Positions 25,893 through 52,862 are shown, counted from the first letter of the stretch. The stretch: DNA of 64,000 bases from a virus (IMGVR_UViG_3300020577_008610:125180-189179), one strand, 5' to 3'. Numbers and translations: made by a program. The notes: a model not told the origin generated them from the sequence alone.

Positions 25893-26410
25893 ATGGTTTG
25901 TTAAGCTTTCAACGACTCTCTTTTCCCGCAATTATCCGAACCAGATACCAAGATAGCATTGCTGCCAGAACAAGTACGCCATAACCGCAAGTTGCAATAG
26001 CCAGGAATAGCAAAATAGTAACTGCCAAGGGATTCGTGTGTAGTACTTGTGGGTTTGACGCCATAAGCCAATGAGCAACTACGCACACCAAAAAGCACAT
26101 ATCCCCAATTATCACCCCAAGTGCTGAGGCAATAAGACGTTCTCGAAAGTTTTTCGAGGTAATTGCAGAGGTTTCCTTAATTTCGCTTTCGTCCAACTTG
26201 CGATAATGCATGATTGCTTTATGTGAGAGTGCGAATCCTTTGCTTTGCATCTTCAGGCAGGCGCATATGCCAGCCATGCAAAGGATACATTTACCTGTCT
26301 TTCCAGGCTCTCTGAGAGTTGAAGAGTTACTTGGTCCTCCCGTCGGGCTTCGATTCCGAATCTCCGGGGTTTCAATCCGGCACACTTACAACTTGTGCTA
26401 CAGGAGGATA

Positions 26411-26485
26411 TGGCTCACAGGGAGGGAGTCGAACCCCCACCGAGGCAAGTTACAGCTTGCTGCCCTACCATTGGGCGACCTGTGA
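26411..26485 (-). tRNA. atypical tRNA, Asn-like body with 6-nt anticodon loop (CTGTAA)
   Basis: TCACAGG/CCTGTGA-G-CCA, GCAAG-ctgtaa-CTTGC, GGTTCGACTCC. Confidence 0.65.
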
Positions 26486-26935: not shown

Positions 26936-27004
26936 TTCCGGCAAACGGACTCGAACCGTTTCTAAGCCCTTATGAAAAGCTCATGCTGCCCTGAGCGTGC
27001 CGGA
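26936..27004 (-). tRNA. tRNA(CAT), Met or Ile2, with reduced D arm
   Basis: TCCGGCA/TGCCGGA, AGCTT-TT-CAT-AA-GGGCT, AACGG-TTCGAGT-CCGTT. Confidence 0.6.
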
Positions 27005-27867: not shown

Positions 27868-27913
27868 TGCTCCCGCCGAGACTCGAACTCGGATGTCCCA
27901 TCCGGGACCAAGG
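27868..27913 (-). pseudogene. 3' half of a tRNA-Leu-like gene
   Basis: variable arm GTCCC-GGAT-GGGAC, CCGAG-TTCGAGT-CTCGG, CGGGAGC-A; no matching 5' half seen. Confidence 0.55.
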
Positions 27914-28003
27914 TGGTGCCGAATGGATTCGAACATTTGCTGTTACAACTCTCTATTCCAGGTCTTGCAAATAGAGCGTTCTATCCACCGTGGTACTCGG
28001 TCA
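27914..28003 (-). ncRNA. degenerate tRNA-like element with 16-nt anticodon loop
   Basis: GGATAGAAC D-like, CTCTA-[TTTGCAAGACCTGGAA]-TAGAG, GTTCGAATC, ends CCA; weak acceptor stem. Confidence 0.35.
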
Positions 28004-28205
28004 CTTGCTGACGAAAATCACAGATTTGAGCAGTCTTTTCTCGATGCTGTTCCTGAGCCTTGTTGGCCTTCAGGTACTTGCAGTGAGAACATTTCCGACT
28101 CGAACATCCGTGAAAAACCCTTCCAACCCACTCTGGTGGAATCTCCACGAGCTTGCCACGACGCATCCGGTAGAACTTTCCATCTTTCTCGATTCGCTTT
28201 GACAT
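27981..28205 (-). CDS. small basic protein
   Basis: MSKRIEKDGKFYRMRRGKLVEIPPEWVG. Confidence 0.6.
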   Translation of the reverse strand: MSKRIEKDGKFYRMRRGKLVEIPPEWVGRVFHGCSSRKCSHCKYLKANKAQEQHREKTAQICDFRQQVTEYHGG

Positions 28206-28220
28206 TGGTCTTCCAACCTT

Positions 28221-28290
28221 TCGAGCTGGCGGGGATCGAACCCGCATCCTCAGTGTACTTTGGGCCTATAGGTTGCCCTCGGTTTTAGCC
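28221..28290 (-). ncRNA. tmRNA-like 3' end (T arm + acceptor strand)
   Basis: GAGGATGCGGGTTCGATCCCCGCCAGCTCG resembles the tmRNA 3' terminus GGACGCGGGTTCAACTCCCGCCAGCTCC. Confidence 0.35.
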
Positions 28291-28358
28291 AGCATAGATG
28301 CCAGTCAAGACCAGGGGTGTATTCCGGTTCCACCACAACCCTACTGGGTTGGAAGTTG

Positions 28359-28455
28359 TTAGCCTGGAGGGATTCGAACCCTCATACTCGGCTTCTAAGC
28401 TTGCCTGTGGCGAAGCCATTGAAGACCGCTGCCTTTGCCATTAGCCTACAAGCTC
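28359..28455 (-). ncRNA. tRNA-bodied RNA with 32-nt anticodon loop (Leu-like)
   Basis: AGCTTG/CAGGCT acceptor, GAGGG-TTCGAAT-CCCTC, GCGGT-[32 nt]-GCCGA. Confidence 0.55.
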
Positions 28456-28598
28456 TTGAGATGAAGTTTGCAAAAATTGCCCCCTTTCTCCTGTTGTTGC
28501 CTCAGCTCGTTGCCAACCTTCATGGGGGGATTGAGCCCCCTAGCTCTCTGTATTGGGCGAAAAGGGTCTGGTGTTGACAACAAGGAAAAAGTGAGTCC

Positions 28599-29030
28599 TT
28601 ATATTAACTTGGCTGCCCTGTAGTCCTTACGGCTCCAAGTCCTTGTACGATGACAGTTGGCACAAACCAACTCGCATTTGGCAACTTCCTCCCACATTCC
28701 TTGGCCGCTTCCGTTACGGATGAAATTAGAGACGTTATCAGCCTTTTGTGCTCTGTCCACGTGATCAAAATCCATGATGAAATGCGGGAAGAAGTTGCCG
28801 CAATCCTTGCATGGATGCTTTTCTTTGTACTCCCTCAAGGCTTCGAGGGCCCTCTGCCTTGTTCTCTTTCGAGATTCAGAGTACTCCTTTTTGTGGCGTT
28901 GAAAGTGAGAAGCTGTGAGCTTCGCAATGCACGATTTGCACTGCCGTACCCGCCTCTTGTCTTTTTTGGAGGCCCAAGAAAACAGCTCTTCTTCCTTTTC
29001 TTCACCGCACTTGATGCAAGTTTTCAACAT
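28599..29030 (-). CDS. HNH endonuclease-like protein with N-terminal Zn ribbon
   Basis: KTCIKCGEEK...CKSC; PCKDCG...MDFDH...EVAKCELVCANCHRTRT; paralog of 31055..31486. Confidence 0.85.
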   Translation of the reverse strand: MLKTCIKCGEEKEEELFSWASKKDKRRVRQCKSCIAKLTASHFQRHKKEYSESRKRTRQRALEALREYKEKHPCKDCGNFFPHFIMDFDHVDRAQKADNVSNFIRNGSGQGMWEEVAKCELVCANCHRTRTWSRKDYRAAKLI

Positions 29031-29157
29031 GAAAAAGCGTAACTCCAAGGGGGTACATTGTCAAGCGATGGCGTTGAACTTTGATTGAATCCAGCTGATC
29101 GGACTCGAATCTTCATTCTATTTCCCGATGATCGGATAGGATTCAATTAGCGCTTTG

Positions 29158-29240
29158 TGCTCAAGAGGGGAATCGAACCCCTACGCCCTTTCGGACACAG
29201 GCTTCTGAGACCTGCACGGCTTCCTTTACGTCACTTGAGC
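29158..29240 (-). tRNA. tRNA-Leu(CAG)
   Basis: GCTCAAG/CTTGAGC-A, CAGGT-CT-CAG-AA-GCCTG, long variable arm. Confidence 0.9.
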
Positions 29241-29302
29241 ATTCAAACATGGCAAAGTTGCTTTGAGGGAGAAGTCGCCATGTTTTAAGTTATATGAGAC
29301 AG

Positions 29303-29376
29303 TGTTCCCGGTGGGATTCGAACCCACAACATCTTCTTTTTGAGAGAAGCGACTCTGCCGGTTGGTCTACGAGAAC
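29303..29376 (-). tRNA. tRNA-Leu(CAA) with short variable loop
   Basis: GTTCTCG/CGGGAAC-A, CTTCT-CT-CAA-AA-AGAAG, variable ATGTT. Confidence 0.85.
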
Positions 29377-29413
29377 ATACAAATACAATCGTTCACTGAT
29401 GAGTTATTTGTCA

Positions 29414-29487
29414 GGTAGGCGTAGATGGAATCGAACCATCGCTCTCTCGGTTATCAGCCAAGTGCTTTTCCATTAAGCTATACGCCT
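29414..29487 (-). tRNA. tRNA-Ile(GAT)
   Basis: AGGCGTA/TACGCCT-A, CT-GAT-AA. Confidence 0.9.
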
Positions 29488-29639
29488 GTTATGCATGATT
29501 TGATGGAAATTTGAGCGCATCACCATGCTAGTAAATGTAGTTTGATGTCGAGATTCTGCATCAAGCAATTGCTCTAACCACAGAGCGTAGCTTCCTGAGC
29601 TACAATCCAACAAAGTGTGTGCTTCTGCCCATGAATGCT

Positions 29640-29942
29640 GGTCCCGTTTAAGGGGTATTTAACCCCCTTTGGTTTTGTTCTGGCTCCTATCCGAGCCTAG
29701 GATGCTGTGGCATCCTTAGCAACCGGATGGACGCTGTGTTGCTGGTCAGGCTCCACAGGAGCAATGAAATTGCTCACGATTTAATGGTTTGTTCAATTAA
29801 GCCAGGCTCCCTCAGCCTTCTGCTTTTTGCTACCAGGGAAAAGTTTTCACTCTTTTCCTCTGTCTGCCACCACAAGGTACTTTCACCTACAAATCGCTTC
29901 GTAAGGTTACTCCCACTAGGAGAGTCGAGGTCTCGCAACCCC
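29640..29942 (-). ncRNA. structured non-coding region, possible divergent tmRNA 5'/tag portion
   Basis: starts GGGGTTG...TCGAC 18 nt after tRNA-Gln; many hairpins; reading frame ...SENFSLVA. Confidence 0.3.
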
Positions 29943-29959
29943 GTAGGGCAGATGCACAG

Positions 29960-30031
29960 TTCGGGCGGGTGGATTCGAACCACCATAACAGGTTTCAGAG
30001 ACCTGGGTCCTAACCGTTGGACGACACCCGA
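29960..30031 (-). tRNA. tRNA-Gln(CTG)
   Basis: CAGGT-CT-CTG-AA-ACCTG; GGTTCGAATCC. Confidence 0.9.
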
Positions 30032-30089
30032 ATAATCTGGAACCTAGGCTGACTAAGCCTAGGTCGTTGTGGGAGGGTTGCTTGGTCCC

Positions 30090-30296
30090 TCAAGAGACTT
30101 GTCGTTTTGTTTCTACTTTACACATACAGTGCAGGTTCTCGAATTTCTTCACTTGCTCCAAGAGCTTCTCTGGATCCTTCTCTACTAGCTTTGCCTTGAT
30201 TTGACAACGTTTACATGATGCGTCAATCGTTGTCGCATCTGCGTTCGATAACTCTAGCTTAATCCACCGGTAAACCCTTGATGTTGCTGTTGGCAT
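30090..30296 (-). CDS. small Cys-containing hypothetical protein
   Basis: CKRC...HCMC. Confidence 0.4.
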   Translation of the reverse strand: MPTATSRVYRWIKLELSNADATTIDASCKRCQIKAKLVEKDPEKLLEQVKKFENLHCMCKVETKRQVS

Positions 30297-30328
30297 TGAA
30301 CTAGTGTAACCACCGTTTTATCTTCTTG

Positions 30329-31012
30329 TCAACCTGCTTCTTCAATCTCTCTCAGAATCGCTTCAGCAGCCTTCTGAGGGTCTTGGGCATCCCGGATAGG
30401 TCGACCTACCACCAGGAGGTCTGCGCCGTCTCTAATGGCTTGCCGAGGGGTTCCTGTGGCCTTCTGATCGCTATTCTGCGAACCAGCGGGACGAATGCCT
30501 GGGATCAAGAAGAAATGACCGAGGTAGTTGAGTCTTCCTTCTGCGACTTCCTTGGGGGAGCACACGAACCCATGGGCTCCCTTGGCCATGTGCATCAGGT
30601 CTTGGACCACCACTTTCCGCTCGTGGTTGTAGACCTTGAGGCAGTCTGCATCATCCAGGGAAGTCATAGCCGTCACAGCCAGGATCATGGGACCACTTCG
30701 AGAGGCTTCAACAGCCGCTTGGATCATAGTTGAGCCGCCTGAAGCATGGATGGTCATGAAGTCAGCTCCAAGATTCATCCCTTGTTTCACAGCCCGAGAG
30801 ACTGTTTCGGGAATGTCATGAAGCTTGAGGTCCAGGAAGCACTTGGCTCCCGATTCCTTCACCATCTCCACAACTTCAGGACCTTCAGAGATGAAGAGCT
30901 CCAAGCCAACCTTAAAAGTGCCGACATAGCCCCTGAGTTGACGAACAAAAGAGCGGGCTTCAATGATGTTGGGAACATCAAGAGCAAAACAGAGCCGGTC
31001 TTGAGCAGCCAT
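30329..31012 (-). CDS. pyrF: orotidine-5'-phosphate decarboxylase
   Basis: ALD, FKVGLELF, FLDLKLHDIPETV, TIHASGG, PGIRP, VVGRPI. Confidence 0.97.
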   Translation of the reverse strand: MAAQDRLCFALDVPNIIEARSFVRQLRGYVGTFKVGLELFISEGPEVVEMVKESGAKCFLDLKLHDIPETVSRAVKQGMNLGADFMTIHASGGSTMIQAAVEASRSGPMILAVTAMTSLDDADCLKVYNHERKVVVQDLMHMAKGAHGFVCSPKEVAEGRLNYLGHFFLIPGIRPAGSQNSDQKATGTPRQAIRDGADLLVVGRPIRDAQDPQKAAEAILREIEEAG

Positions 31013-31054
31013 TAACTGTACCTTCCAAAAAGAAAGTGAGATGACATAGTAATC

Positions 31055-31486
31055 TTACTTCTTCGCCAAATCCCAATCTTTCCGAGTGTGGGTTCTAATC
31101 CTATGGCAATTTGAACACACAAGATCGCACTTGGCAATTTCACTCAGAACTATACCTAGCACTTCACTCCGGATGAGTCGAGCTATCCCGTCTTTTTTCT
31201 CTGCTCGATCTCGATGGTCAAAATCCATTACATAGTATGGGTACTGTCTTCCGCAATCCATGCAAGGCTTTGATTCCTTGAGCTTTACGATCTCCTTCAT
31301 GACAGAAGCTCGTCTTTTGGCTGACTTTTCCGCGTACTGTTGTTTGTATTTCTGGTAATGCTCCTTGATGGTAGTGGCCATGCACTCTTTGCATCGAGTG
31401 CTGCGTTTGCCAGCGGCTTTGCTTTGGAGCGAGAACTGTTCGATGGTCTTCTCGACACTACATTTGGTACAGGTTTTGACTTCCAT
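31055..31486 (-). CDS. HNH endonuclease-like protein with N-terminal Zn ribbon
   Basis: KTCTKC...CKEC; PCMDCG...MDFDHRD...EIAKCDLVCSNCHRIRT. Confidence 0.85.
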   Translation of the reverse strand: MEVKTCTKCSVEKTIEQFSLQSKAAGKRSTRCKECMATTIKEHYQKYKQQYAEKSAKRRASVMKEIVKLKESKPCMDCGRQYPYYVMDFDHRDRAEKKDGIARLIRSEVLGIVLSEIAKCDLVCSNCHRIRTHTRKDWDLAKK

Positions 31487-31495
31487 ATCCTACTC

Positions 31496-31750
31496 CTAGT
31501 GTCCGTAGTTGCAGCCAACCAGAATGACCTTTCCGGTTTCGGGATGGACCAAGCGCCTATCGTAGGTGCCACAGCAGCCATCATCACGGATGGCTTCATA
31601 AGCTGAGACCTCGACAGGATCGTCGGCAGAAGCAATCCGCATGTTATCAACACAGGACTCTTCCTCCATGTCAGAACGAAGAACAGAAAAGGCCCAATCG
31701 ATTTCCATTTGAGAGAGTGTCATACCCAGAAGATGCATCGGCACTCTCAA
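31496..31750 (-). CDS. hypothetical phage protein
   Basis: DNMR.A...GCCG.YD...GCNYGH pattern. Confidence 0.6.
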   Translation of the reverse strand: MRVPMHLLGMTLSQMEIDWAFSVLRSDMEEESCVDNMRIASADDPVEVSAYEAIRDDGCCGTYDRRLVHPETGKVILVGCNYGH

Positions 31751-31969
31751 AAGGTCAATGCCCAGGCAACAAGAAACATCACAGCGTGCAAGAGGCCCAT
31801 GGCGTGTGGTGATTTTAACTTGAAACTTGCAACCCCTCGGGGTAACTCTCCCCGAGATGCCCAGGAGTCCTTAAGTTTGATGTAGGGTATATCCTGGTCT
31901 CCAAGTCCTTGCTGTTGCAAGGATTGGTGCTTCCCCATGCGAACCTAACCCCAGATGGGGTCACTGTGA

Positions 31970-32046
31970 TGGTAGCGGGTCCGGGAATTGCACACCGGGA
32001 TCTCATGGGTATGAGCCATGCGAGATAACTTCTTCTCCAACCCGCA
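31970..32046 (-). tRNA. tRNA-Met(CAT), initiator-like
   Basis: 1:72 mismatch, GCGGGT/ACCCGC, CATGG-CT-CAT-AC-CCATG, CCA. Confidence 0.8.
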
Positions 32047-32051
32047 ATAGA

Positions 32052-32771
32052 TTAGAAACTTCCGAACTCGGGTTCACCTTTGAACCCTGGCAGCCTCTTC
32101 TTAGCATACTCGATCCATGCCATCAAGAGGTTGTCGGTGAAATCTTCAGCTTCCTCTCGGGAGATTTGCTTCTTCTTCTGCAAGTCCCGGAAAAGCTCTC
32201 CCTTCTTGTCCTGCATCACCTGAAGGAGAGGAATCTTCTGGGTTTTGGCTTGTTTGTACATGCCCATCACCCAGGCTTCCACCTCGTGGGGTGCAAAGAA
32301 GTAGTTGTAAGCGGCATCCGTGGTGGCGTAGTGATCCGCTCCAGGCTCATATCCTGGATGTCCAGAGAGTCCAGGGTCCGTGAAGTGGATGCCTTGTTCT
32401 GGTCCTTCGTGGCCGCTTCTCTGGTCTTGCCTGTAGTGCTCCAGCTCATGCCGGATGGTGTTCTTCAGGGTGGGAATGAACTCAGAGAGTTGACGGTCAT
32501 TGAACTCAAAAGGCACAGCAACGTACACCTGGAGCCTGCGAATGGCATCGTTGTAGCCTCCACCAGCTTGGCGAAGGGGACCATTGTACCGCTTGAACTG
32601 AGCCTGAAGCAACAGGTCGTTGACCTGTCCCTTGAAAGGAGGAATCTCTTCCTGGTCCCGGTTCTTCTTCAGGTGATTCACAATCACCCTGGAGACTTGG
32701 GTGGTCAGGTTGTCCATGACCCCTTCACGGATTGCTTCTCGAATGAGTGCTACCAGCTCTCGCTTCTTCAT
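32052..32771 (-). CDS. zincin-like (HELEH) protein with N-terminal leader
   Basis: MKKRELVALIREAIREG; IRHELEH...YFFAPHEVEAW; TAATTA at 32782-32777. Confidence 0.7.
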   Translation of the reverse strand: MKKRELVALIREAIREGVMDNLTTQVSRVIVNHLKKNRDQEEIPPFKGQVNDLLLQAQFKRYNGPLRQAGGGYNDAIRRLQVYVAVPFEFNDRQLSEFIPTLKNTIRHELEHYRQDQRSGHEGPEQGIHFTDPGLSGHPGYEPGADHYATTDAAYNYFFAPHEVEAWVMGMYKQAKTQKIPLLQVMQDKKGELFRDLQKKKQISREEAEDFTDNLLMAWIEYAKKRLPGFKGEPEFGSF

Positions 32772-32958
32772 GCTGGTAATTATGAACAAAGGACCATTGC
32801 CGGTCTTGTTATCTTGCAACACCCTTTGGCCCGTGCTGGGTTACTCAAGTGATGCACCAACTAACCGAGCGGTCAAGCTGCTTTGAGAGCTACTAAAGCA
32901 AATTGAACCGCTGAGCCCCTGTTTGCCTAGGATATAACAGGCGCTTCTATTCATCCAG

Positions 32959-33033
32959 TGGGCCTCCCGGGATTTGAACCCGAACTTGACGGATTAAGAG
33001 TCCGCTGTGCTAAACCGTTGACACCAGAAGCCC
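32959..33033 (-). tRNA. tRNA-Lys(CTT)
   Basis: CGGA-CT-CTT-AA-TCCG; GGTTCAAATCC. Confidence 0.9.
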
Positions 33034-33243
33034 ATTAGGAAACGGTTGGGGTTATCGTGCTACCGCTTCACAAGCACCCAGGTTCTCCCACTGTCCTGGC
33101 AGTGTTCAGCCCAGGAGTAACCTTTTAAGGGGGTACCTGAGCCTATTGGTCGGGAGATGGTGGTCCTTGCCACCTCCTTGGTTCCAAGGTTGGTCTCAAT
33201 CCAGATTTCAGGGGCCCATATACTGGCCAGCGTTGAATTGAGA

Positions 33244-33319
33244 TGGTAGCCCCTGTGAGGATTGAACTCACCTGTACCGGTTTGTAGGACCGGCGCCCTC
33301 ACCAGAGTGCGAAGGAGCT
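33244..33319 (-). tRNA. tRNA-Val(TAC)
   Basis: CCGGT-CC-TAC-AA-ACCGG; AGCTCCT/AGGGGCT-A-CCA. Confidence 0.8.
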
Positions 33320-33321
33320 AA

Positions 33322-33810
33322 ACTGATTATTTCCGAGTCATTCCCGGCGCAGTACCACTTCCAAGGTTGCTTTCGCTTCACCTTAGAGGGCCTGTTTCCC
33401 ACCCTTTGCGGAATGGTAAGCCGTCTTTACTCGCTGGTTATCACCCTACAGGGCTACGTGCTCCCTGCTCGGCAACCCATGAGCCACATTAGTAACCCCA
33501 ATCCCAGGGCGTGGTTACCAGAAATTGACTTCTGGCTGGTGTCAAATACTCCCGATTTTCATCGTACGGACCAGGAGTGTTTGGCCACTCCCTGACATAC
33601 AGGATCTCTGTCTAGGTCCTAGAGGTTATTTTACGTCGGATTAGCGACGTTCCGTTGCCCAGTTTGGGCAACCAGGCATGAACCTTTTAAGGTTCCGGAA
33701 TTGAGGTTGGTTTCTCTTGAGTCTGTCAGCACCTCAAAACTGACAGAAAGAGACTAGTTGTCAAAGAGCAAAGAGTCCTCGGACTCTTGGAGGGAGCAGC
33801 CCTCCGACGT
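33322..33810 (-). ncRNA. large, highly structured ncRNA candidate (GOLLD/ROOL-like context)
   Basis: ~490 nt without a credible ORF, >10 hairpins incl. GNRA-capped GC-GAAA-GC and CCATTCC-GCAA-AGGGTGG, immediately upstream of tRNA-Val. Confidence 0.55.
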
Positions 33811-34019
33811 TTTTAAACTTAGCATCGGTCTCTTTGGCCGTCAAGGCGACCGGTTACGATTTCACTCCAAGAAGCGCTCGAAGCCAATCGGCCTTGGTGA
33901 GCACCATGTAAAGCACAGTGAGTCCCAGGAAGACCAGGACGAAAGCAAGGGCTCCAACGAGCCAAGAGAGAGCGGTTTTCAGTGCGGACGGAATTTCCAT
34001 GAGGTTCTCCTAGCTGTAA

Positions 34020-34439
34020 TTAAGGCTCCTTCTCCGTCTTCGCTTCCTTTAGTTCTGGCAACCAGCCAGTGTACCCACATTCGTGCGGACAAGGCTCAAG
34101 GTGAAGCCCAGACCACTTCCCCTTGTGCTCGGGACAGGGTTTGGTTCGAAGCTTCTCTCCACCGTAGACCAATCGTGCCAAGAGATCGCTTTTATAGATG
34201 TGAAGCTTGATATCCTCGAAGTGTGGAATAATCCTAGCCCCCCAAACATCCCGGATTGCTGCCTTCTCGCCCTTCTCCTTCTTGACCTGGCGGTACTTGT
34301 CTTCCAGCACCTTCATCCAGGCTTCAAAAGCAGCACAGTAGTAACTAACAGGCGCCACCCGTTCACCAAAGTGGACCTCCAATTCTTGGAGCATCTCTTG
34401 GGCCTCTGCTTCAGATAGCTTTTTGTTCTTTATTGCCAT
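34020..34439 (-). CDS. hypothetical protein with C-terminal Cys/His motif
   Basis: KPCPEHKGKWSG...PCPHECGYTGWLP. Confidence 0.65.
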   Translation of the reverse strand: MAIKNKKLSEAEAQEMLQELEVHFGERVAPVSYYCAAFEAWMKVLEDKYRQVKKEKGEKAAIRDVWGARIIPHFEDIKLHIYKSDLLARLVYGGEKLRTKPCPEHKGKWSGLHLEPCPHECGYTGWLPELKEAKTEKEP

Positions 34440-34561
34440 GTTCGGAGCATAGCATAAACAAAGAGCGTTTGCACCTTTTAGTCTACCCAGAGAGAATTGA
34501 ACTCTCGCCTATGGAGGCGAAGCAGACTCTCATCTCAAGCTGAAGCTTGGGAGAGTTATAG

Positions 34562-34633
34562 AGCGACTCACGGGAATCGAACCCGTATACTCAACCATGG
34601 CAAGGTCGTATAATACCATTATACCAGAGCCGC
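34562..34633 (-). tRNA. tRNA-Gly(GCC)
   Basis: GCGGCTC/GAGTCGC-T, TT-GCC-AT. Confidence 0.9.
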
Positions 34634-34662
34634 AAATACCTGCTTTTCAGCAGAAGGAACCG

Positions 34663-35064
34663 TTACATGTCCTCGTCTTCGTCGTACCCGTCATCTTCGA
34701 GGAAAGCATCGTCATCCTCGTCTTCATCTTCATTGAAAGGATCGTCTTCCTCATCGTATCCACCATCCTCGGAATCATCATTCCGAACATCCTCCAGGAA
34801 GGCTTCAAACTCGTCAGGATCCATCAAAGAAGCAGAAGCATACTGCTTGTCTTCATTGCCGCCATCAAGGGCTAGAATGAACTCTTGGCCATCAGTTCCA
34901 AAACAAAGAATTCGATAGAATTGCCGAATGTTACTTCCATCTCCGGCCACGTCCACTTCTTGCATGTGGATGCTCTTGATTTTCTTCCCGACCAAATCAG
35001 CCAGTTCGTGGTTGGCTGTTCCCTTGGTAGTACCCATTGCCTTTTCTGCTTTGCCTCCGGCCAT
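34663..35064 (-). CDS. hypothetical protein with highly acidic C-terminal tail
   Basis: D/E-rich last ~45 aa. Confidence 0.65.
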   Translation of the reverse strand: MAGGKAEKAMGTTKGTANHELADLVGKKIKSIHMQEVDVAGDGSNIRQFYRILCFGTDGQEFILALDGGNEDKQYASASLMDPDEFEAFLEDVRNDDSEDGGYDEEDDPFNEDEDEDDDAFLEDDGYDEDEDM

Positions 35065-35322
35065 AGATATGTCTTCGCTCCTATTCGCACAGGCAAAGTA
35101 AGCTGTTTTGGGTTTGTTGTGTGAAAACTTCAGCACTCCCGACAGGATTTAAACCTGCATAGAATTACTCAGATTGGGAAATAGATGCAATGCACTGTCT
35201 TCCAGAGAAGGGACGCTACTGAGTGTAGTGGACAACCCATCCAACACCCTTGAGCTGTACAGGAGTCCCCACTGGGAGCAAGAACATGGGGTTCTGTTGC
35301 CGAGGATATTCCAGCTTGTTAG

Positions 35323-35396
35323 CCTCTCCGGGGAGACTCGAACTCCCATTGCCCCATTTAGAAGACGGGTGCCTATTCCAGTTAGACTACGAAGAG
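35323..35396 (-). tRNA. tRNA-Arg(TCT)
   Basis: CCCGT-CT-TCT-AA-ATGGG. Confidence 0.85.
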
Positions 35397-35516
35397 ATGT
35401 TCCAGGAACAAGATTTCTACGAGATTGCCTGAGAAAAACAAGCTGCCTTTGATGGTCTTTCTCCATGGGGTTGACCCATACTTCCAGCTTCCTGATGGCT
35501 GGTTTAGAGGCACTCT

Positions 35517-35593
35517 TGGTAGACCCATCGGGATTTGAACCCGAAACCTCCCGCTTATAAGGCAGGTGCTCTAACCAACTGAGCTATAGGTCC
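35517..35593 (-). tRNA. tRNA-Ile(TAT)
   Basis: canonical body, CCTGC-CT-TAT-AA-GCGGG, A73, CCA. Confidence 0.85.
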
Positions 35594-35709
35594 ATAGAAT
35601 TAAGATTGAACATCGGAAGGCCAACCTTTGAAATCTTCATGGTACCACAAAGACTCTTAAAGCTGTCCAATCCCCGCAAAGAATTTACTGAGAAATGCTG
35701 TTCCTCAAG

Positions 35710-36015
35710 TCACTCTCCGTACCCTTCGCAAGACAGGGAAGACTCTTCAACCCTTCGAAACTGTACCACCTCTGCATCCTTGTAGGGATGCTCGGAAGGA
35801 GGCCTTCCGTTTCCAAGCTCCCACTTTCTTGCTCGTTCCAGAGCTCGGAAATGTGCCAACAATCGAGCTTGACTTGACCAGATTTTCCCCTGCTTCGCCC
35901 AGATGTGGCGAGAACTGACACCCCCACGACTGTAAAGGTTCGTACCCTTCTTTCGGATCATCCAGTAGATGTTCGGATCCTCTTGAACCGCTTGCTTCTT
36001 TGCTCTTTTGGTCAT
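35710..36015 (-). CDS. hypothetical phage protein (K.GKIW motif)
   Basis: IRKKGTNLYSRGG...WAKQGKIWS. Confidence 0.65.
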   Translation of the reverse strand: MTKRAKKQAVQEDPNIYWMIRKKGTNLYSRGGVSSRHIWAKQGKIWSSQARLLAHFRALERARKWELGNGRPPSEHPYKDAEVVQFRRVEESSLSCEGYGE

Positions 36016-36053
36016 GCTGCAACCATAAGACAAGTTATGGACGAAATGAACAG

Positions 36054-36125
36054 AGCGGATGGTGGAATTTGAATCCACAACGACCTGCTTGGAAGGCAGG
36101 CACTCTACCATTGAGCTACATCCGC
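36054..36125 (-). tRNA. tRNA-Gly(TCC)
   Basis: GCGGATG/CATCCGC-T, CT-TCC-AA. Confidence 0.9.
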
Positions 36126-36199
36126 ATTGCAAATCAAGAAACACAGGGTTCTCTGACTTGTGTCTAGCACCTCCCAAACCTTGATTTGCCTTTATTTTG

Positions 36200-36298
36200 T
36201 GGCGGACACAGAGAGAATCGAACTCTCTTCAATCGCCGCTAGTACTCCCTTCCAGGTCTTCCTTTCTGCGAGGCGATTCCGTCACTGGAAGTGTGCCC
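36200..36298 (-). ncRNA. tRNA-bodied RNA with 34-nt purine-rich anticodon loop
   Basis: GGGCACA/TGTGTCC-G-CCA, GAGAG-TTCGATT-CTCTC, TCGCC-[34 nt]-GGCGA. Confidence 0.6.
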
Positions 36299-36401
36299 AA
36301 ATGGGGGTCAATCAAACACAGAATTCTTTGCCCTGCTTTTTACACAGGGGATTCTCCCAAACAATTGACCGGGTTTGTGCTTGTTCTCCCTGCAAGGGAG
36401 A

Positions 36402-36486
36402 TGGTGGGGCAGGTGGGAGTCGAACCCACAGTGCACAATGGCGGATGTTTTACAGACATCTGTTCCTCCCAGGGAACATCTACCCC
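36402..36486 (-). tRNA. tRNA-Tyr(GTA)
   Basis: GATGT-CT-GTA-AA-ACATC, long variable region, CCA. Confidence 0.8.
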
Positions 36487-36660
36487 GTTATTTGTTGTAC
36501 CAGACTAATCGAAGGGTTTACGTACTCATCCGAAATGATGTGAGTGCTGGTTGCCCAATTCCTATGTTTGTCATAGTGCACAAACATCCCAGATTCAATA
36601 TGTCAAGAGAATTCCTCAATCGTCATCAGAACGACGTACCTAGGAATAGGTCTTGCCACT

Positions 36661-36748
36661 TGGCTCTCCAGCTAGGATTTGCACCTAGAACACTCCGTGG
36701 CCTTGTTAAGGGGCTCGGGCGGAGTGTGTTTCATTACACCACCGGAGA
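36661..36748 (-). ncRNA. tRNA-bodied RNA with 22-nt anticodon loop (Asn-like acceptor)
   Basis: TCTCCGG/CTGGAGA-G-CCA, GTGT/ACAC D stem, CTCCG-[22 nt]-CGGAG, CTAGG-TGCAAAT-CCTAG. Confidence 0.65.
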
Positions 36749-36822
36749 ATAAACGCCCCCACTCTTCATGGGGACCAAAGCTGATTGTCAAAGACCGGCG
36801 AGGCATTCCCTCAGATCGGAAG

Positions 36823-37511: not shown

Positions 37512-38702
37512 TTACTTCTTGGCTTTGGCAGGGACGGAAGGAGTCTGAGCTTCGCTGGTGTCTTCACCCGTAGCTGTACGAACCATCAGGTCTTCTACGT
37601 ATTTGTGAGCCTTAAACAGGTTCTTGTTGCTGACCTGGAGGGCTCCCCAAACAACCATCCGGGGCTCCGAGGGGCAGTCCGCCATAAACAGGCCGAGTTG
37701 TTTAGCCTGTGCGTCGGAGAGAATTTCGTTCTTGAAGAAGATCTTCAGTTTATCGGCAATTTCCATATACTTCGGAGTGGTGGCTGCAGTGCCTAGCCGA
37801 AGCTTGGCCTTCGGCCAATCCGACAGAACATCCTTAAGGGAAATCTGACGGTCGTAGTTCTTGGCAAAGTCCGTAAATTTCAGGGCTGCTTCAATGCCGA
37901 CCATGGAAGCCACCATTGTGTAGAACAGATTCTCAAAGGGAGTGTCAATCAGCTTGGTTCGCTGAAGCTGCTGGTCCAGCTTAAACCAAGAACGACGGTC
38001 AGGGTACTTTTTGTTGCTCTCGTAAGCCTTCTTCGTCTTGCTCTGGTCGTCCGGATCAAACTCCAGGAACTCTCGGTTCTGACGGATAAAGTCCACCGTA
38101 AGGGGGTGGCACTTGCCAGGAAGCGAAGCGTACTTGATCCATTCGTCCACAGAGGGCTTCAGTTCTACTGTTGCCGCCCGCGACACCTCGGCAGGATCCG
38201 TCTGCTGAACGTTGTATAAGTCTCCCACGTTCTCAGCCACGATCACACGGGTTCCAGGGTGGAGTTTGTACCCATAGAAGGCGCGGCTGTCCATGAGTTG
38301 GAACACAGCCTGCTTTACCCCTTCCAGGGCACGGTTACGCTCATCCAGGAACAGGACCACGGGACGTTCCGTGGCGTCGATGAGCCAATCACAGGGCTTA
38401 AAAGCCGTGGATTTTCTCTCAGCTCCCAGGTCCGGCATACCTGTCAGGTCACCCTCAGTAAGCTGACTCAGGCGCCGTTCCACCACCGGAAGTCCCTGCT
38501 CGTACTTCCAGTTGTACCTCTTCTGATTGTCCTCATCCTTGTAGAAATCATCCCGCATCAAAGCAGCACTCTGATAGGTGCCCTCGGACTTGCCGACAGC
38601 GTGCCTTCCTCGGATGCAGACCGAAATTTCCGGCCCAAAGGCCACCAGGAGCTTTTGCAGCTGCTCCATTTCCACTTGAACTACTGGTGCGAGTACCGCC
38701 AT
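37512..38702 (-). CDS. MoxR-family AAA+ ATPase
   Basis: GRHAVGKS Walker A, ERRLSQ..EGDL.G.P, VVLFLDERNRA Walker B, DPA..SR, PDRRSW. Confidence 0.85.
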   Translation of the reverse strand: MAVLAPVVQVEMEQLQKLLVAFGPEISVCIRGRHAVGKSEGTYQSAALMRDDFYKDEDNQKRYNWKYEQGLPVVERRLSQLTEGDLTGMPDLGAERKSTAFKPCDWLIDATERPVVLFLDERNRALEGVKQAVFQLMDSRAFYGYKLHPGTRVIVAENVGDLYNVQQTDPAEVSRAATVELKPSVDEWIKYASLPGKCHPLTVDFIRQNREFLEFDPDDQSKTKKAYESNKKYPDRRSWFKLDQQLQRTKLIDTPFENLFYTMVASMVGIEAALKFTDFAKNYDRQISLKDVLSDWPKAKLRLGTAATTPKYMEIADKLKIFFKNEILSDAQAKQLGLFMADCPSEPRMVVWGALQVSNKNLFKAHKYVEDLMVRTATGEDTSEAQTPSVPAKAKK

Positions 38703-38857
38703 TTGTTTTCTTCCTTTACCTTCGAGATTAGCAGACTGTTAGAGGGAAATCAACTGAATTAGCCGCTTGGGTGAGAATTAAACTCACACATTGCCCTGGT
38801 TTTAGCTTTAGTCGCTAAAGCCAGCTTCGGGAAAGTTCCTGACCGAGCGGTAATGAA

Positions 38858-47325: not shown

Positions 47326-48573
47326 CTATTCCGAAACCTGCTTAGCCTCCTTTATCAACACGTCCAAGAAACTATCAGGGTAAGATCCGTCCGGACTCTT
47401 CTTCTTCTGGATGTAGTCGATCAAATCCTTGGAGCGGCCGAGGAAACGGTCAATCAAAGGGGCCATCCAAAAGCCTCGTTCCTGAATTTTCAAAGCGAAC
47501 ACCTTCCGTTTCTGAGCTTCTGGAACATCCCAAATGGCTTGGGTGGTTTCCTGATAGCCATTCTCGATTTGTTGAAACAAATGACGGGTCTGCTCTTGCA
47601 TCTCTCGTGCCCTATTCTGGATGTGAGGATCTAGAATAGGGAGAATGTCGTCCAGTTTCTCCGTGAGAATCAGCTCCATCACAGCCCTGGGAGAGTTTGT
47701 AGTTCTGTCTCGAACGCGATTGTAGGTCATATAGGCAAGGCTTTTTACTTTCACTCGATTAAAGTATTTGTCCCTGGCCACAACTCCTTCCTGTTCGAAG
47801 GGAGGTTTGGAACCTACGAAGTCCAGGAGTTCCTGGAGGTTGTTGAGCTTGTGATGGGGGCAAGGATTCACCCCAAGGACACTATGCTCAATGGATAACT
47901 CTTTCCCGTCCAAATTCTGACGAATCCCAAGGAGATGTAGTCTGTAGTTCGGGTAATTAACCACGACTCGGTTGAGAGGGGTGGTTAGTTCGAACATGTA
48001 TGCGAGGGAAGGATTTAAAGTGCCAGACCATGCCTCAAAAGCTAACTCCGGAACCACATCATTCCCAATCACGTTATTGGAGAACAAAGTCTCCTGGAGA
48101 GCCTTCTCAAAGAGCTTTCGGAAAGTCATGTCACCCCAACCGGTTATGGACTTGTCAGCCAAAGGAACCGCTCGGGTCGCAACCTGCCACTTCTTGGTGA
48201 GCAAGAAGTCGAACCAGACGATGCACAAGGTCCCATCCAGCTTTTCAAAGAAGATAGTTTTCTTGTCATCCATGTCTACGGGTGCAGCGTTGACGTCTCC
48301 GAAGTTGAAGAACCGGTCGAAAGGACGAGCCAGGATGACCGTCTTCCCCACAGACTCTTGTTGCTCCACTTGAGCCTCTGTAAGAGGCTCCTGGGTGCCT
48401 AAGATGAGTCCACGGCACTGGTTAACGATCGGTCCTGCCTTGGACTCGATTTGGTCATAGTTCAAGGAGAACATACGGTCTCCCGGCTTTGCACTAGACT
48501 TAATCCCGTGCTCGGCCTTCAGTTGAGCCAGCGAGTGATTATTCAAGTAATCCTGAACGATAGGGTTTGTCAT
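47326..48573 (-). CDS. RNA ligase, T4 Rnl1-like
   Basis: QCRGLIL, ARPFDRFFNFG, EKLDGT (motif I), FELTTPLNRVVVNY, EGVV, RVKVKSLAY. Confidence 0.9.
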   Translation of the reverse strand: MTNPIVQDYLNNHSLAQLKAEHGIKSSAKPGDRMFSLNYDQIESKAGPIVNQCRGLILGTQEPLTEAQVEQQESVGKTVILARPFDRFFNFGDVNAAPVDMDDKKTIFFEKLDGTLCIVWFDFLLTKKWQVATRAVPLADKSITGWGDMTFRKLFEKALQETLFSNNVIGNDVVPELAFEAWSGTLNPSLAYMFELTTPLNRVVVNYPNYRLHLLGIRQNLDGKELSIEHSVLGVNPCPHHKLNNLQELLDFVGSKPPFEQEGVVARDKYFNRVKVKSLAYMTYNRVRDRTTNSPRAVMELILTEKLDDILPILDPHIQNRAREMQEQTRHLFQQIENGYQETTQAIWDVPEAQKRKVFALKIQERGFWMAPLIDRFLGRSKDLIDYIQKKKSPDGSYPDSFLDVLIKEAKQVSE

Positions 48574-48768
48574 TGAGGGCCCTTGTTGGCAGCTTCCGGA
48601 TGAGGATAATAACTTTTGCCAAGAATGGAAAGTGTTTCCCTCCATCTAAATTCACGATAACAAGCGGCAGAGCAAGCAAGAGGGCCCGTGGCTTTCCCTG
48701 CGATTGGGGAGTTCTGCTCTTTTCCGCAGACGGTGCAGAACCATTTCTGTGGGCTGAATAGCATGAGA

Positions 48769-52790: not shown

Positions 52791-52862
52791 AGCCCACGGT
52801 GGAAGTTGAATCCACATCTCACGCCTTACCGTAGCGGCATACTGCCATTGTACGACGTGGGC
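52791..52862 (-). tRNA. atypical tRNA-Thr-like (loop AC-GGT-AA)
   Basis: GCCCACG/CGTGGGC acceptor, GTGGA-TTCAACT-TCCAC; lacks U33. Confidence 0.6.

Follow-up and report, generated by a model that had tools for sequence, protein, structure and literature searches.

Why would a phage carry genes shaped like transfer RNAs (tRNAs) that have a large loop in place of the anticodon? The question is raised by a 64,000-nucleotide (nt) stretch of viral DNA (IMGVR_UViG_3300020577_008610:125180-189179, referred to here as the window), in which four candidate genes, c1−c4, lie on the minus strand between positions 27,914 and 36,748. The window is the final 64 kb of a 189,179-nt record from IMG/VR with a CheckV completeness estimate of 48%, which together imply the genome of a jumbo phage. 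ARAGORN finds 24 tRNAs in the window, nearly all on the minus strand, and although c1−c4 all lie within this tRNA cluster, they are not among the genes it reports.

28359..28455, minus strand: c1, a tRNA-like gene of 97 nt without an encoded CCA; a triloop caps its anticodon-arm helix, which is long and interrupted
36200..36298, minus strand: c2, a 95-nt tRNA-shaped RNA followed by GCCA, with two orthologous copies in the related locus L008
36661..36748, minus strand: c3, an 84-nt tRNA-shaped RNA followed by GCCA, with a 22-nt loop on an anticodon stem of 5−6 base pairs (bp)
27914..28003, minus strand: c4, with a GTTCGAATC motif, an ACCA tail and a perfect 7−8 bp hairpin with a 12-nt loop

Three genes keep a tRNA top half

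The original prediction described all four as tRNA bodies with an enlarged anticodon loop, which holds for c1, c2 and c3. In c2, all seven acceptor pairs and all five T-arm pairs are intact (T loop TTCGATT) and the 3′ end reads G73-CCA; the predicted 34-nt loop is present, closed by a P2-like stem (TCGCC/GGCGA), and there is no separate stable D stem. The acceptor (7/7) and T arm (5/5) of c3 are equally complete and again followed by G73-CCA, so that two genes do encode CCA as proposed, and its 22-nt loop is closed by CTCCG/CGGAG. With 11 of the 12 pairs of the top half (acceptor and T stems), c1 is slightly less regular: its acceptor has a G1.A72 mismatch, its T arm reads GAGGG/TTCGAAT/CCCTC and its D loop contains GG. 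The anticodon region of c1, put at 32 nt in the original prediction, folds instead either as a 30-nt loop or as a 7-bp bulged stem plus 25 nt. A canonical anticodon loop, of 7 nt with U33 and with a purine in position 37, is absent from all three (loops of 25−30, 34 and 22 nt for c1, c2 and c3, respectively). The description does not extend to c4, where only 9 of the 12 nt required lie between the T loop and ACCA, which leaves no room for a 7-bp acceptor together with a 5-bp T stem. At its 5′ end, c4 shares 23 nt with the tail of a 74-codon open reading frame (ORF) that finishes at 27981, and it is most likely a relic or a chance tRNA-like stretch.

The excess of such structures over chance was measured with a strict scan (perfect acceptor, perfect T stem, T-loop motif, length 78−140 nt) of the 189-kb genome and of 40 shuffles of it. 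Shuffled genomes yielded a mean of 0.5 matches and never an NCCA tail. The real genome yielded c2 and c3 (both with GCCA), five class II tRNAs, an element at 35135−35266 and one plus-strand match. Standard tools largely pass these genes over. ARAGORN calls none of c1−c4 without its intron option; with that option (-i) only c1 receives an intron model, an arbitrary ‘Pyl(cta)’ with a 23-nt intron. Similarly, c1 alone exceeds the threshold of the Rfam tRNA model RF00005 (33.6 bits against 29), through a local alignment that passes over the insert, and c2, c3 and c4 have no match to Rfam tRNA at E ≤ 10. Genes of this sort are skipped by tRNA finders, and annotators label them pseudogenes or miss them.

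The candidates had also been proposed to form a family. As no sequence is common to c1−c4 beyond general tRNA features, they represent a kind of RNA, to which c1 appears to belong alongside c2 and c3, rather than a sequence family. One exception is an exact 11-mer, AAGACCTGGAA, common to the loops of c2 and c4 (chance probability about 1e-4, a rough estimate), which falls in different reading frames in the two and is absent from the 17 related loci.

Orthologues reveal covariation in the top half

Relatives were fetched using a MoxR-like ATPase gene as a synteny anchor. It is separate from the RNAs and lies 0.8 kb upstream of c3 in the order of transcription, beyond a conserved unit that precedes c3.

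37512..38702, minus strand: MoxR-like ATPase gene, the synteny anchor
36755..36794, minus strand: conserved upstream unit of c3, a box, TCTTTGACAAYNAGCTTT(T)GG, followed by a 7−8 bp hairpin with the loop TGAWGAG

The ATPase has hundreds of homologues in metagenomic phage contigs, about 30 of them closer relatives at the protein level. Amino acid identity to the window protein is 85% for locus L001, 74% for L008, 72% for L009, 62% for L010 and about 50% for L013−L016. Other routes to relatives gave little: megablast against cultured phages returned just a 70-nt tRNA match and no close relative, blastn of c1−c3 against 50,697 phage records found matches no bigger than the T arm, pattern scans of IMG/VR (c3 upstream box, c2 3′ flank, c3 D and T arms) retrieved the contig of L009 or nothing, and a search by way of ORF208 led to a single uninformative locus.

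Orthologues of c3 are present in L008 (11952−12025, with a 4-bp stem and an 8-nt loop) and L009 (11959−12031, with a 5-bp stem and a 6-nt loop; Rfam tRNA 41.1 bits). Both sit directly after tRNA-Thr(UGU) and behind the same upstream box (TCTTTGACAA..AGCTTT) and hairpin, the stem of which shows compensatory changes across the window, L008 and L009. Since the inserts made MAFFT alignments of the RNAs unusable, top-half pairs were counted by script. Most acceptor- and T-stem positions vary in sequence among the three phages, yet every pair is intact: all 36 top-half pair cells are standard, and eight of the 12 pairs show double-sided compensatory changes. The D arm is common to the three genes. 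Their loops, of 22 nt in the window, 8 nt in L008 and 6 nt in L009, are in no case canonical, and U33 is not seen in the two longer ones. The position of c3 is occupied in L001 by a normal tRNA-Gly(UCC) whose D arm is similar, suggesting that c3 derives from a tRNA, possibly of the Gly type.

Two functions considered for the hairpin upstream of c3 were rejected. It has a terminator-like score in the window, where alone a terminator-like U tract is found, and it does not have the core of a hammerhead.

The orthologues of c2 form a tandem pair in L008 (12534−12624 and 12696−12770); the copies measure 87 and 71 nt up to ACCA, and each has the downstream spacer that also follows c2. G1-C72, G2-C71, G3:U70, C4-G69 and the CCA are kept in all three genes, with compensatory changes in T-stem and distal acceptor pairs; the discriminator is A73 in the L008 copies and G73 in c2. 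The middles (64 nt in c2, 56 and 40 nt in the L008 copies) are unalignable, although each consists of one closing stem around a large loop.

A 28-nt match between the 3′ end of c2 and Salmonella phage PVP-SE1 proved unrelated. The gene concerned, of about 88 nt (L018:338-432; NC_016071:64352-64446), is unannotated and situated between tRNA-Gln and tRNA-Ser; its UUGGAAA anticodon loop and long variable arm mark it as a probable tRNA-Ser(GGA), unusual in its D arm and unrelated to c2. Of 425 matching phage records (T5-like and rV5-like), 411 contain a full-length homologue, in most cases without annotation or under the name hypothetical protein.

Random decay, it had been argued from the window alone, would not single out the acceptor and T arms for preservation, and the orthologues bear this out: in both lineages all or nearly all top-half pairs are kept and the anticodon region varies freely. 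The retention of these pairs through compensatory changes, while the loops diverge, indicates that selection acts on the tRNA top half and not on the loop, and that at least two lineages have been maintained by selection after decoding was lost.

Maintained mimics or decaying genes

We lean towards reading c1−c3 as remodelled tRNA-type genes kept as non-decoding, tRNA-shaped RNAs, or tRNA mimics. All three would have descended from tRNA-type genes in the cluster, with which they share a strand; selection would have kept the acceptor, T and, for the most part, D arms, and the remodelled anticodon arm would leave the RNAs unable to decode. The top half of a tRNA is what RNase P, the 3′-end maturation machinery, the CCA enzyme and some synthetases recognize. 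Judging from these known binders, the RNAs would be transcribed, cut by RNase P, trimmed at the 3′ end like tRNAs and perhaps charged, and could act as stable tRNA look-alikes occupying a tRNA-binding partner. Such a role would point to a class of phage small RNA working through the tRNA top half, as RNAC and RNAD of phage T4 may do.

Several observations weigh against this interpretation. The evidence for selection comes from two or three sequences per lineage (c2 and c3), and c1 has no orthologue in the relatives searched or by blastn. The whole record of the closest relative (L001/G001) contains eight ordinary tRNAs and nothing like c1−c4, which makes these genes dispensable accessories. 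The middles fold no more stably than shuffled sequences. Rfam recognizes c2 neither as a tRNA nor as a transfer-messenger RNA (tmRNA), even at E ≤ 10, and the best score of the L008 copies with the tmRNA models RF00023 and RF04321 is 14.7 bits (E 0.39, not significant). The c3 gene of the window may itself be decaying: GG is gone from its D loop, its T loop reads TGCAAAT and the 22-nt insert occurs in this phage only.

Much of this would be expected if the genes were decaying or recently disabled copies of tRNAs or tmRNA in a fast-turnover cluster, functionless, with stems still intact because the damage is recent. We regard this as possible but doubtful. The cluster does differ widely between relatives (24 tRNAs in the window, at least 17 in L008, eight in L001), and relics stand alongside (c4, an element termed x5 that is described below, and another at 38764−38849 with acceptor mismatches). 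The D and T loops of c3 are without canonical elbow bases, c1 has a 1:72 mismatch and no orthologue, and neither the lack of every one of these genes in the closest relative nor the unremarkable stability of the middles would surprise. Decay does not readily account for a non-canonical loop shared by the c3 genes of three phages (ATPase identity 72−74%) in which 12 of 12 top-half pairs are perfect and eight have changed in compensation, or for the retention of acceptor identity pairs and CCA in the c2 lineage. This pattern indicates purifying selection on an RNA already past decoding.

The original prediction had offered three functions for the genes, namely short protein-spliced introns healed by the phage’s own ligase, decoys or other non-decoding mimics, and scaffolds displaying guide or antisense loops. 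The ligase gene in question is real, and nothing ties it to c1−c3.

47326..48645, minus strand: Rnl1-type RNA ligase gene (Pfam PF09511, E 1.6e-10)

In the intron scheme, an endonuclease would cut out an insert of 15−27 nt and the Rnl1-type ligase, 10 kb away, would seal the exons. Genes of this kind would resemble the intron-containing tRNAs of archaea and eukaryotes in that their cloverleaf is intact apart from nucleotides added to the anticodon loop, and in c1 some of the enumerated excisions would indeed leave UU-CAA/CUA/UUA-GA loops. For c2 and c3 the same enumeration gives no single excision that leaves U33 and R37 in the loop, and inspection of the folds disclosed no bulge-helix-bulge motif (no 3-nt bulges 4 bp apart). 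A PF01974 splicing endonuclease, RtcB and an AAA_33 (Pnkp-type) kinase were not found in the recovered 48% of the genome. The c3 orthologues without the insert still have non-canonical loops of 6 or 8 nt, the phage is of bacterial type (tmRNA, T4-type RNA ligase) and short protein-spliced tRNA introns are not known from bacteria or phages; introns are therefore a very improbable explanation. Guide or antisense loops directed at phage or host transcripts are scarcely credible. In favour are the large, mostly unstructured loops and the 11-mer common to c2 and c4; the 11-mer is missing from all related loci, and neither loop sequence nor loop length is conserved between orthologues. The longest loop complementarity to the 189-kb phage genome is 10−12 nt, a level equalled or bettered by 112−271 of 300 shuffles. 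The favoured interpretation as tRNA mimics is a form of the remaining proposal, that of non-decoding mimics, from which the decoy for anticodon nucleases has to be dropped as unlikely because the anticodon loop that these enzymes recognize is itself missing. More broadly, the RNAs might be decoys titrating host tRNA-directed defence enzymes (anticodon nucleases, acceptor-stem toxins, acetyltransferases) through the tRNA body. Phage tRNAs do counter tRNA-targeting defences (PMC10264068), jumbo phages have many RNA-repair and counter-defence genes (PMC7824862) and only the top half is conserved here. We nevertheless consider such decoys distinctly unlikely: the acceptor sequences of the c3 orthologues are unconserved, so no sequence-specific acceptor-stem enzyme is implied, and no defence or anti-defence gene is linked to the RNAs. 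The decoy and mimic interpretations overlap for any target whose binding to the elbow or acceptor is generic.

A CCA-adding enzyme, for its part, was not found in the recovered half of the genome.

Resemblance of c2 to tmRNAs without a coding sequence

In c2 and in both L008 copies, a 7-bp acceptor containing G3:U70 goes together with a 3′ (N)CCA, a combination that is not applicable to c1, c3 or c4. Hou and Schimmel are said to have found in 1988 that G3:U70 is the major determinant for alanyl-tRNA synthetase (AlaRS) and works even in minihelices. Given G3:U70, an encoded CCA and a layout like that of the tRNA-like domain of tmRNA, c2 is probably alanylated. tmRNA itself, which contains the upper half of a tRNA, is a substrate of RNase P and is charged with alanine (PMC3985003). 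A tmRNA database paper lists nine ‘standard, no CDS’ tmRNAs, which do not have the coding sequence (CDS), and states that the CDS-less tmRNA of mycobacteriophage DS6A inhibited Escherichia coli tmRNA (PMC11915505, citing Mao et al. 2009). Jakobid mitochondria and some plastids have CDS-less forms as well.

The DS6A element, which we found at NC_023744:28478-28556, agrees with c2 in layout and has an identical T loop (TTCGATT). Like CDS-less tmRNAs, c2 and the L008 copies have G3:U70, a 7-bp acceptor, a single closing stem around a loop, a short linker and a T arm, and contain no plausible tag frame. The unpaired 5′ linker is 13 nt in both c2 and DS6A and 3−4 nt in the L008 copies. At its two ends, the shorter (71-nt) of these copies is identical at 11 of 12 and 11 of 14 nt to the ends of the tmRNA encoded by the L001 phage itself. 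A search of the loops for frames encoding a tag peptide was also negative: stops occur at near chance frequency and no tmRNA-like tag emerged.

Other comparisons count against placing c2 in this group. The DS6A element, serving as a positive control, scores 34.7 bits (E 7e-13) with the Rfam tmRNA model, under which c2 and the L008 copies remain below significance. The D-loop motif of tmRNA (GGxUUCGAC) is faint in c2, where it appears as GUGACGG; the remnants are GUGACGG or CAACGG-like. The ends of c2 agree with tmRNA at just 4 of 12 and 8 of 14 nt, and c2 has G73 in place of A73. A further difference is that the same phage also encodes a full tmRNA (tag GADALQMAA; G000:C1:25395-25745), about 100 kb away from the tRNA cluster. 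The presence of full tmRNAs in the lineage, in the record of the window phage and in L001, is also a point in favour of a link to tmRNA; an SmpB gene was not found in the recovered half of the genome.

The tmRNA of L001, the closest relative, has the tag GDNAFQMAA and lies inside the tRNA cluster (L001:13598-13946).

On these grounds c2 may be a CDS-less tmRNA-like RNA or an alanine-identity mimic, and may descend from a CDS-less tmRNA. With its three-arm layout of acceptor, closing stem with large loop, and T arm, c2 would probably be alanylated by AlaRS and could compete with, or stand in for, the partners of tmRNA or tRNA-Ala. If c2 is such an alanine-accepting, mini-tmRNA-like RNA, it would connect the tRNA clusters of phages with interference in ribosome rescue or in the work of host factors that bind tRNA.

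Comparison with other tRNA-like RNAs

Nearest to these genes in kind and place are RNAC (species 1, 139 nt) and RNAD (species 2, 119 nt) of T4, small RNAs encoded in a tRNA cluster and on the tRNA strand, the function of which is still unknown (PMC3014915, PMC9697503). RNAC ends in a canonical T arm (CCGGG UUCGAAU CCCGG), and has an acceptor-like closing stem and long hairpins at the position of the anticodon arm; it differs in its internal acceptor mismatches and in having no encoded CCA. RNAD has no clear tRNA top half in the fold made here. Both c2 and c3 are shorter than the T4 RNAs and nearer to a cloverleaf, and blastn detected no sequence homology of c1−c3 to rnaC or rnaD, so the resemblance is one of kind and location only. 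A bolder proposal is that T4-like jumbo phages keep a toolkit of anticodon-less, tRNA-shaped effectors, in which c2-type genes would be tmRNA-derived, alanine-accepting RNAs reduced to the tRNA-like domain, encoded beside a full phage tmRNA and jamming or redirecting host ribosome rescue or another Ala-tRNA-dependent process. We consider this unlikely as it stands; were it true, it would supply a function for RNAs of the RNAC/RNAD type, a 50-year-old puzzle.

Two further groups are less similar. Frameshift-suppressor or quadruplet-decoding tRNAs have an enlarged anticodon loop (8−10 nt) on a normal body, and the window also has genes with 6- and 9-nt loops; loops of 22−34 nt without U33, by contrast, cannot present an anticodon. 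YrlA and other bacterial Y RNAs (Rfam RF02553), bound by Ro60/Rsr, are likewise non-decoding, have a tRNA-like elbow and are in some cases phage-encoded, and the genes for a MoxR-like ATPase and a vWA-domain protein that adjoin the cluster are a point of likeness to the setting of Y RNAs. In YrlA, the RNA ends form the Ro-binding stem and not an acceptor. No match to RF02553 was obtained at E ≤ 10 for the RNAs studied here, and a TROVE gene (PF05731) was not found in the recovered part of the genome. In jumbo phages that encode a TROVE protein, its partner is a tRNA-like RNA (PMC7824862).

Other elements in and around the cluster

Further tRNA-like features in the window, all on the minus strand, range from near-normal tRNA genes to isolated modules.

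28222..28342, minus strand: x5, a tRNA/tmRNA-like 3′ module (GCGGG TTCGATC CCCGC CAGCTCG) with a poor 5′ partner, a scan match with one mismatch
27868..27909, minus strand: x6, a 41-nt ‘minihelix’ with six of seven acceptor pairs, the T arm CCGAG TTCGAGT CTCGG and 10 nt between
35135..35266, minus strand: a 132-nt element with a perfect acceptor (ACTCCTG/CGGGAGT), a T arm (GCAGG TTTAAAT CCTGT) and a 101-nt middle
38764..38849, minus strand: a tRNA-like element of 86 nt, intergenic, in the leader of the gene for the MoxR-like ATPase
26335-26407, minus strand: a non-canonical tRNA gene with a 9-nt loop (ATTGAAACC), 42.9 bits in Rfam and missed by ARAGORN
26411-26485, minus strand: a non-canonical tRNA gene with a 6-nt loop (CTGTAA), ‘tRNA-???’ in ARAGORN
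26937-27004, minus strand: a non-canonical, 68-nt CAU tRNA gene with an aberrant D arm
52792-52862, minus strand: a non-canonical, 71-nt tRNA gene with a 9−11-nt loop

The module x5, which scores 13.2 bits (E 0.07) in the Rfam tmRNA model, is probably a relic. The minihelix x6 scores 21.3 bits (E 1.9) as mascRNA-like; it comes directly after c4 and before a 208-codon ORF, and is possibly a processing signal. The 132-nt element is just downstream of tRNA-Arg(UCU), and the ORF that overlies it (35149−35466) also spans that tRNA and is probably spurious. The 86-nt element is conserved in L001 only, and has acceptor mismatches in both phages. Genes with an ‘expanded anticodon loop’ in phage tRNA clusters make up a heterogeneous set, in which class II tRNAs with odd D arms and relics would stand beside functional mimics.

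The relatives have odd tRNA-shaped genes of their own, all on the minus strand (L008:12024-12134, L008:15619-15693, L015:827-948 and L015:17814-17888). They include a 111-nt gene with a triloop ‘anticodon’ hairpin and a variable region of roughly 48 nt, 75-nt genes with a CUUCUAA loop and no D arm, and a 122-nt gene with a c3-type D arm.

The cluster is headed by a divergent gene pair, the MoxR-like ATPase gene (37512−38702, minus strand) and a DUF2201 metallopeptidase/vWA gene (39009−40373, plus strand). Two paralogous small ORFs on the minus strand (28599−29048 and 31055−31486), each of about 145 amino acids and with no Pfam match, lie between the tRNAs; two homologues of these ORFs are also present in the L008 cluster, and they may be mobile or cluster-associated.

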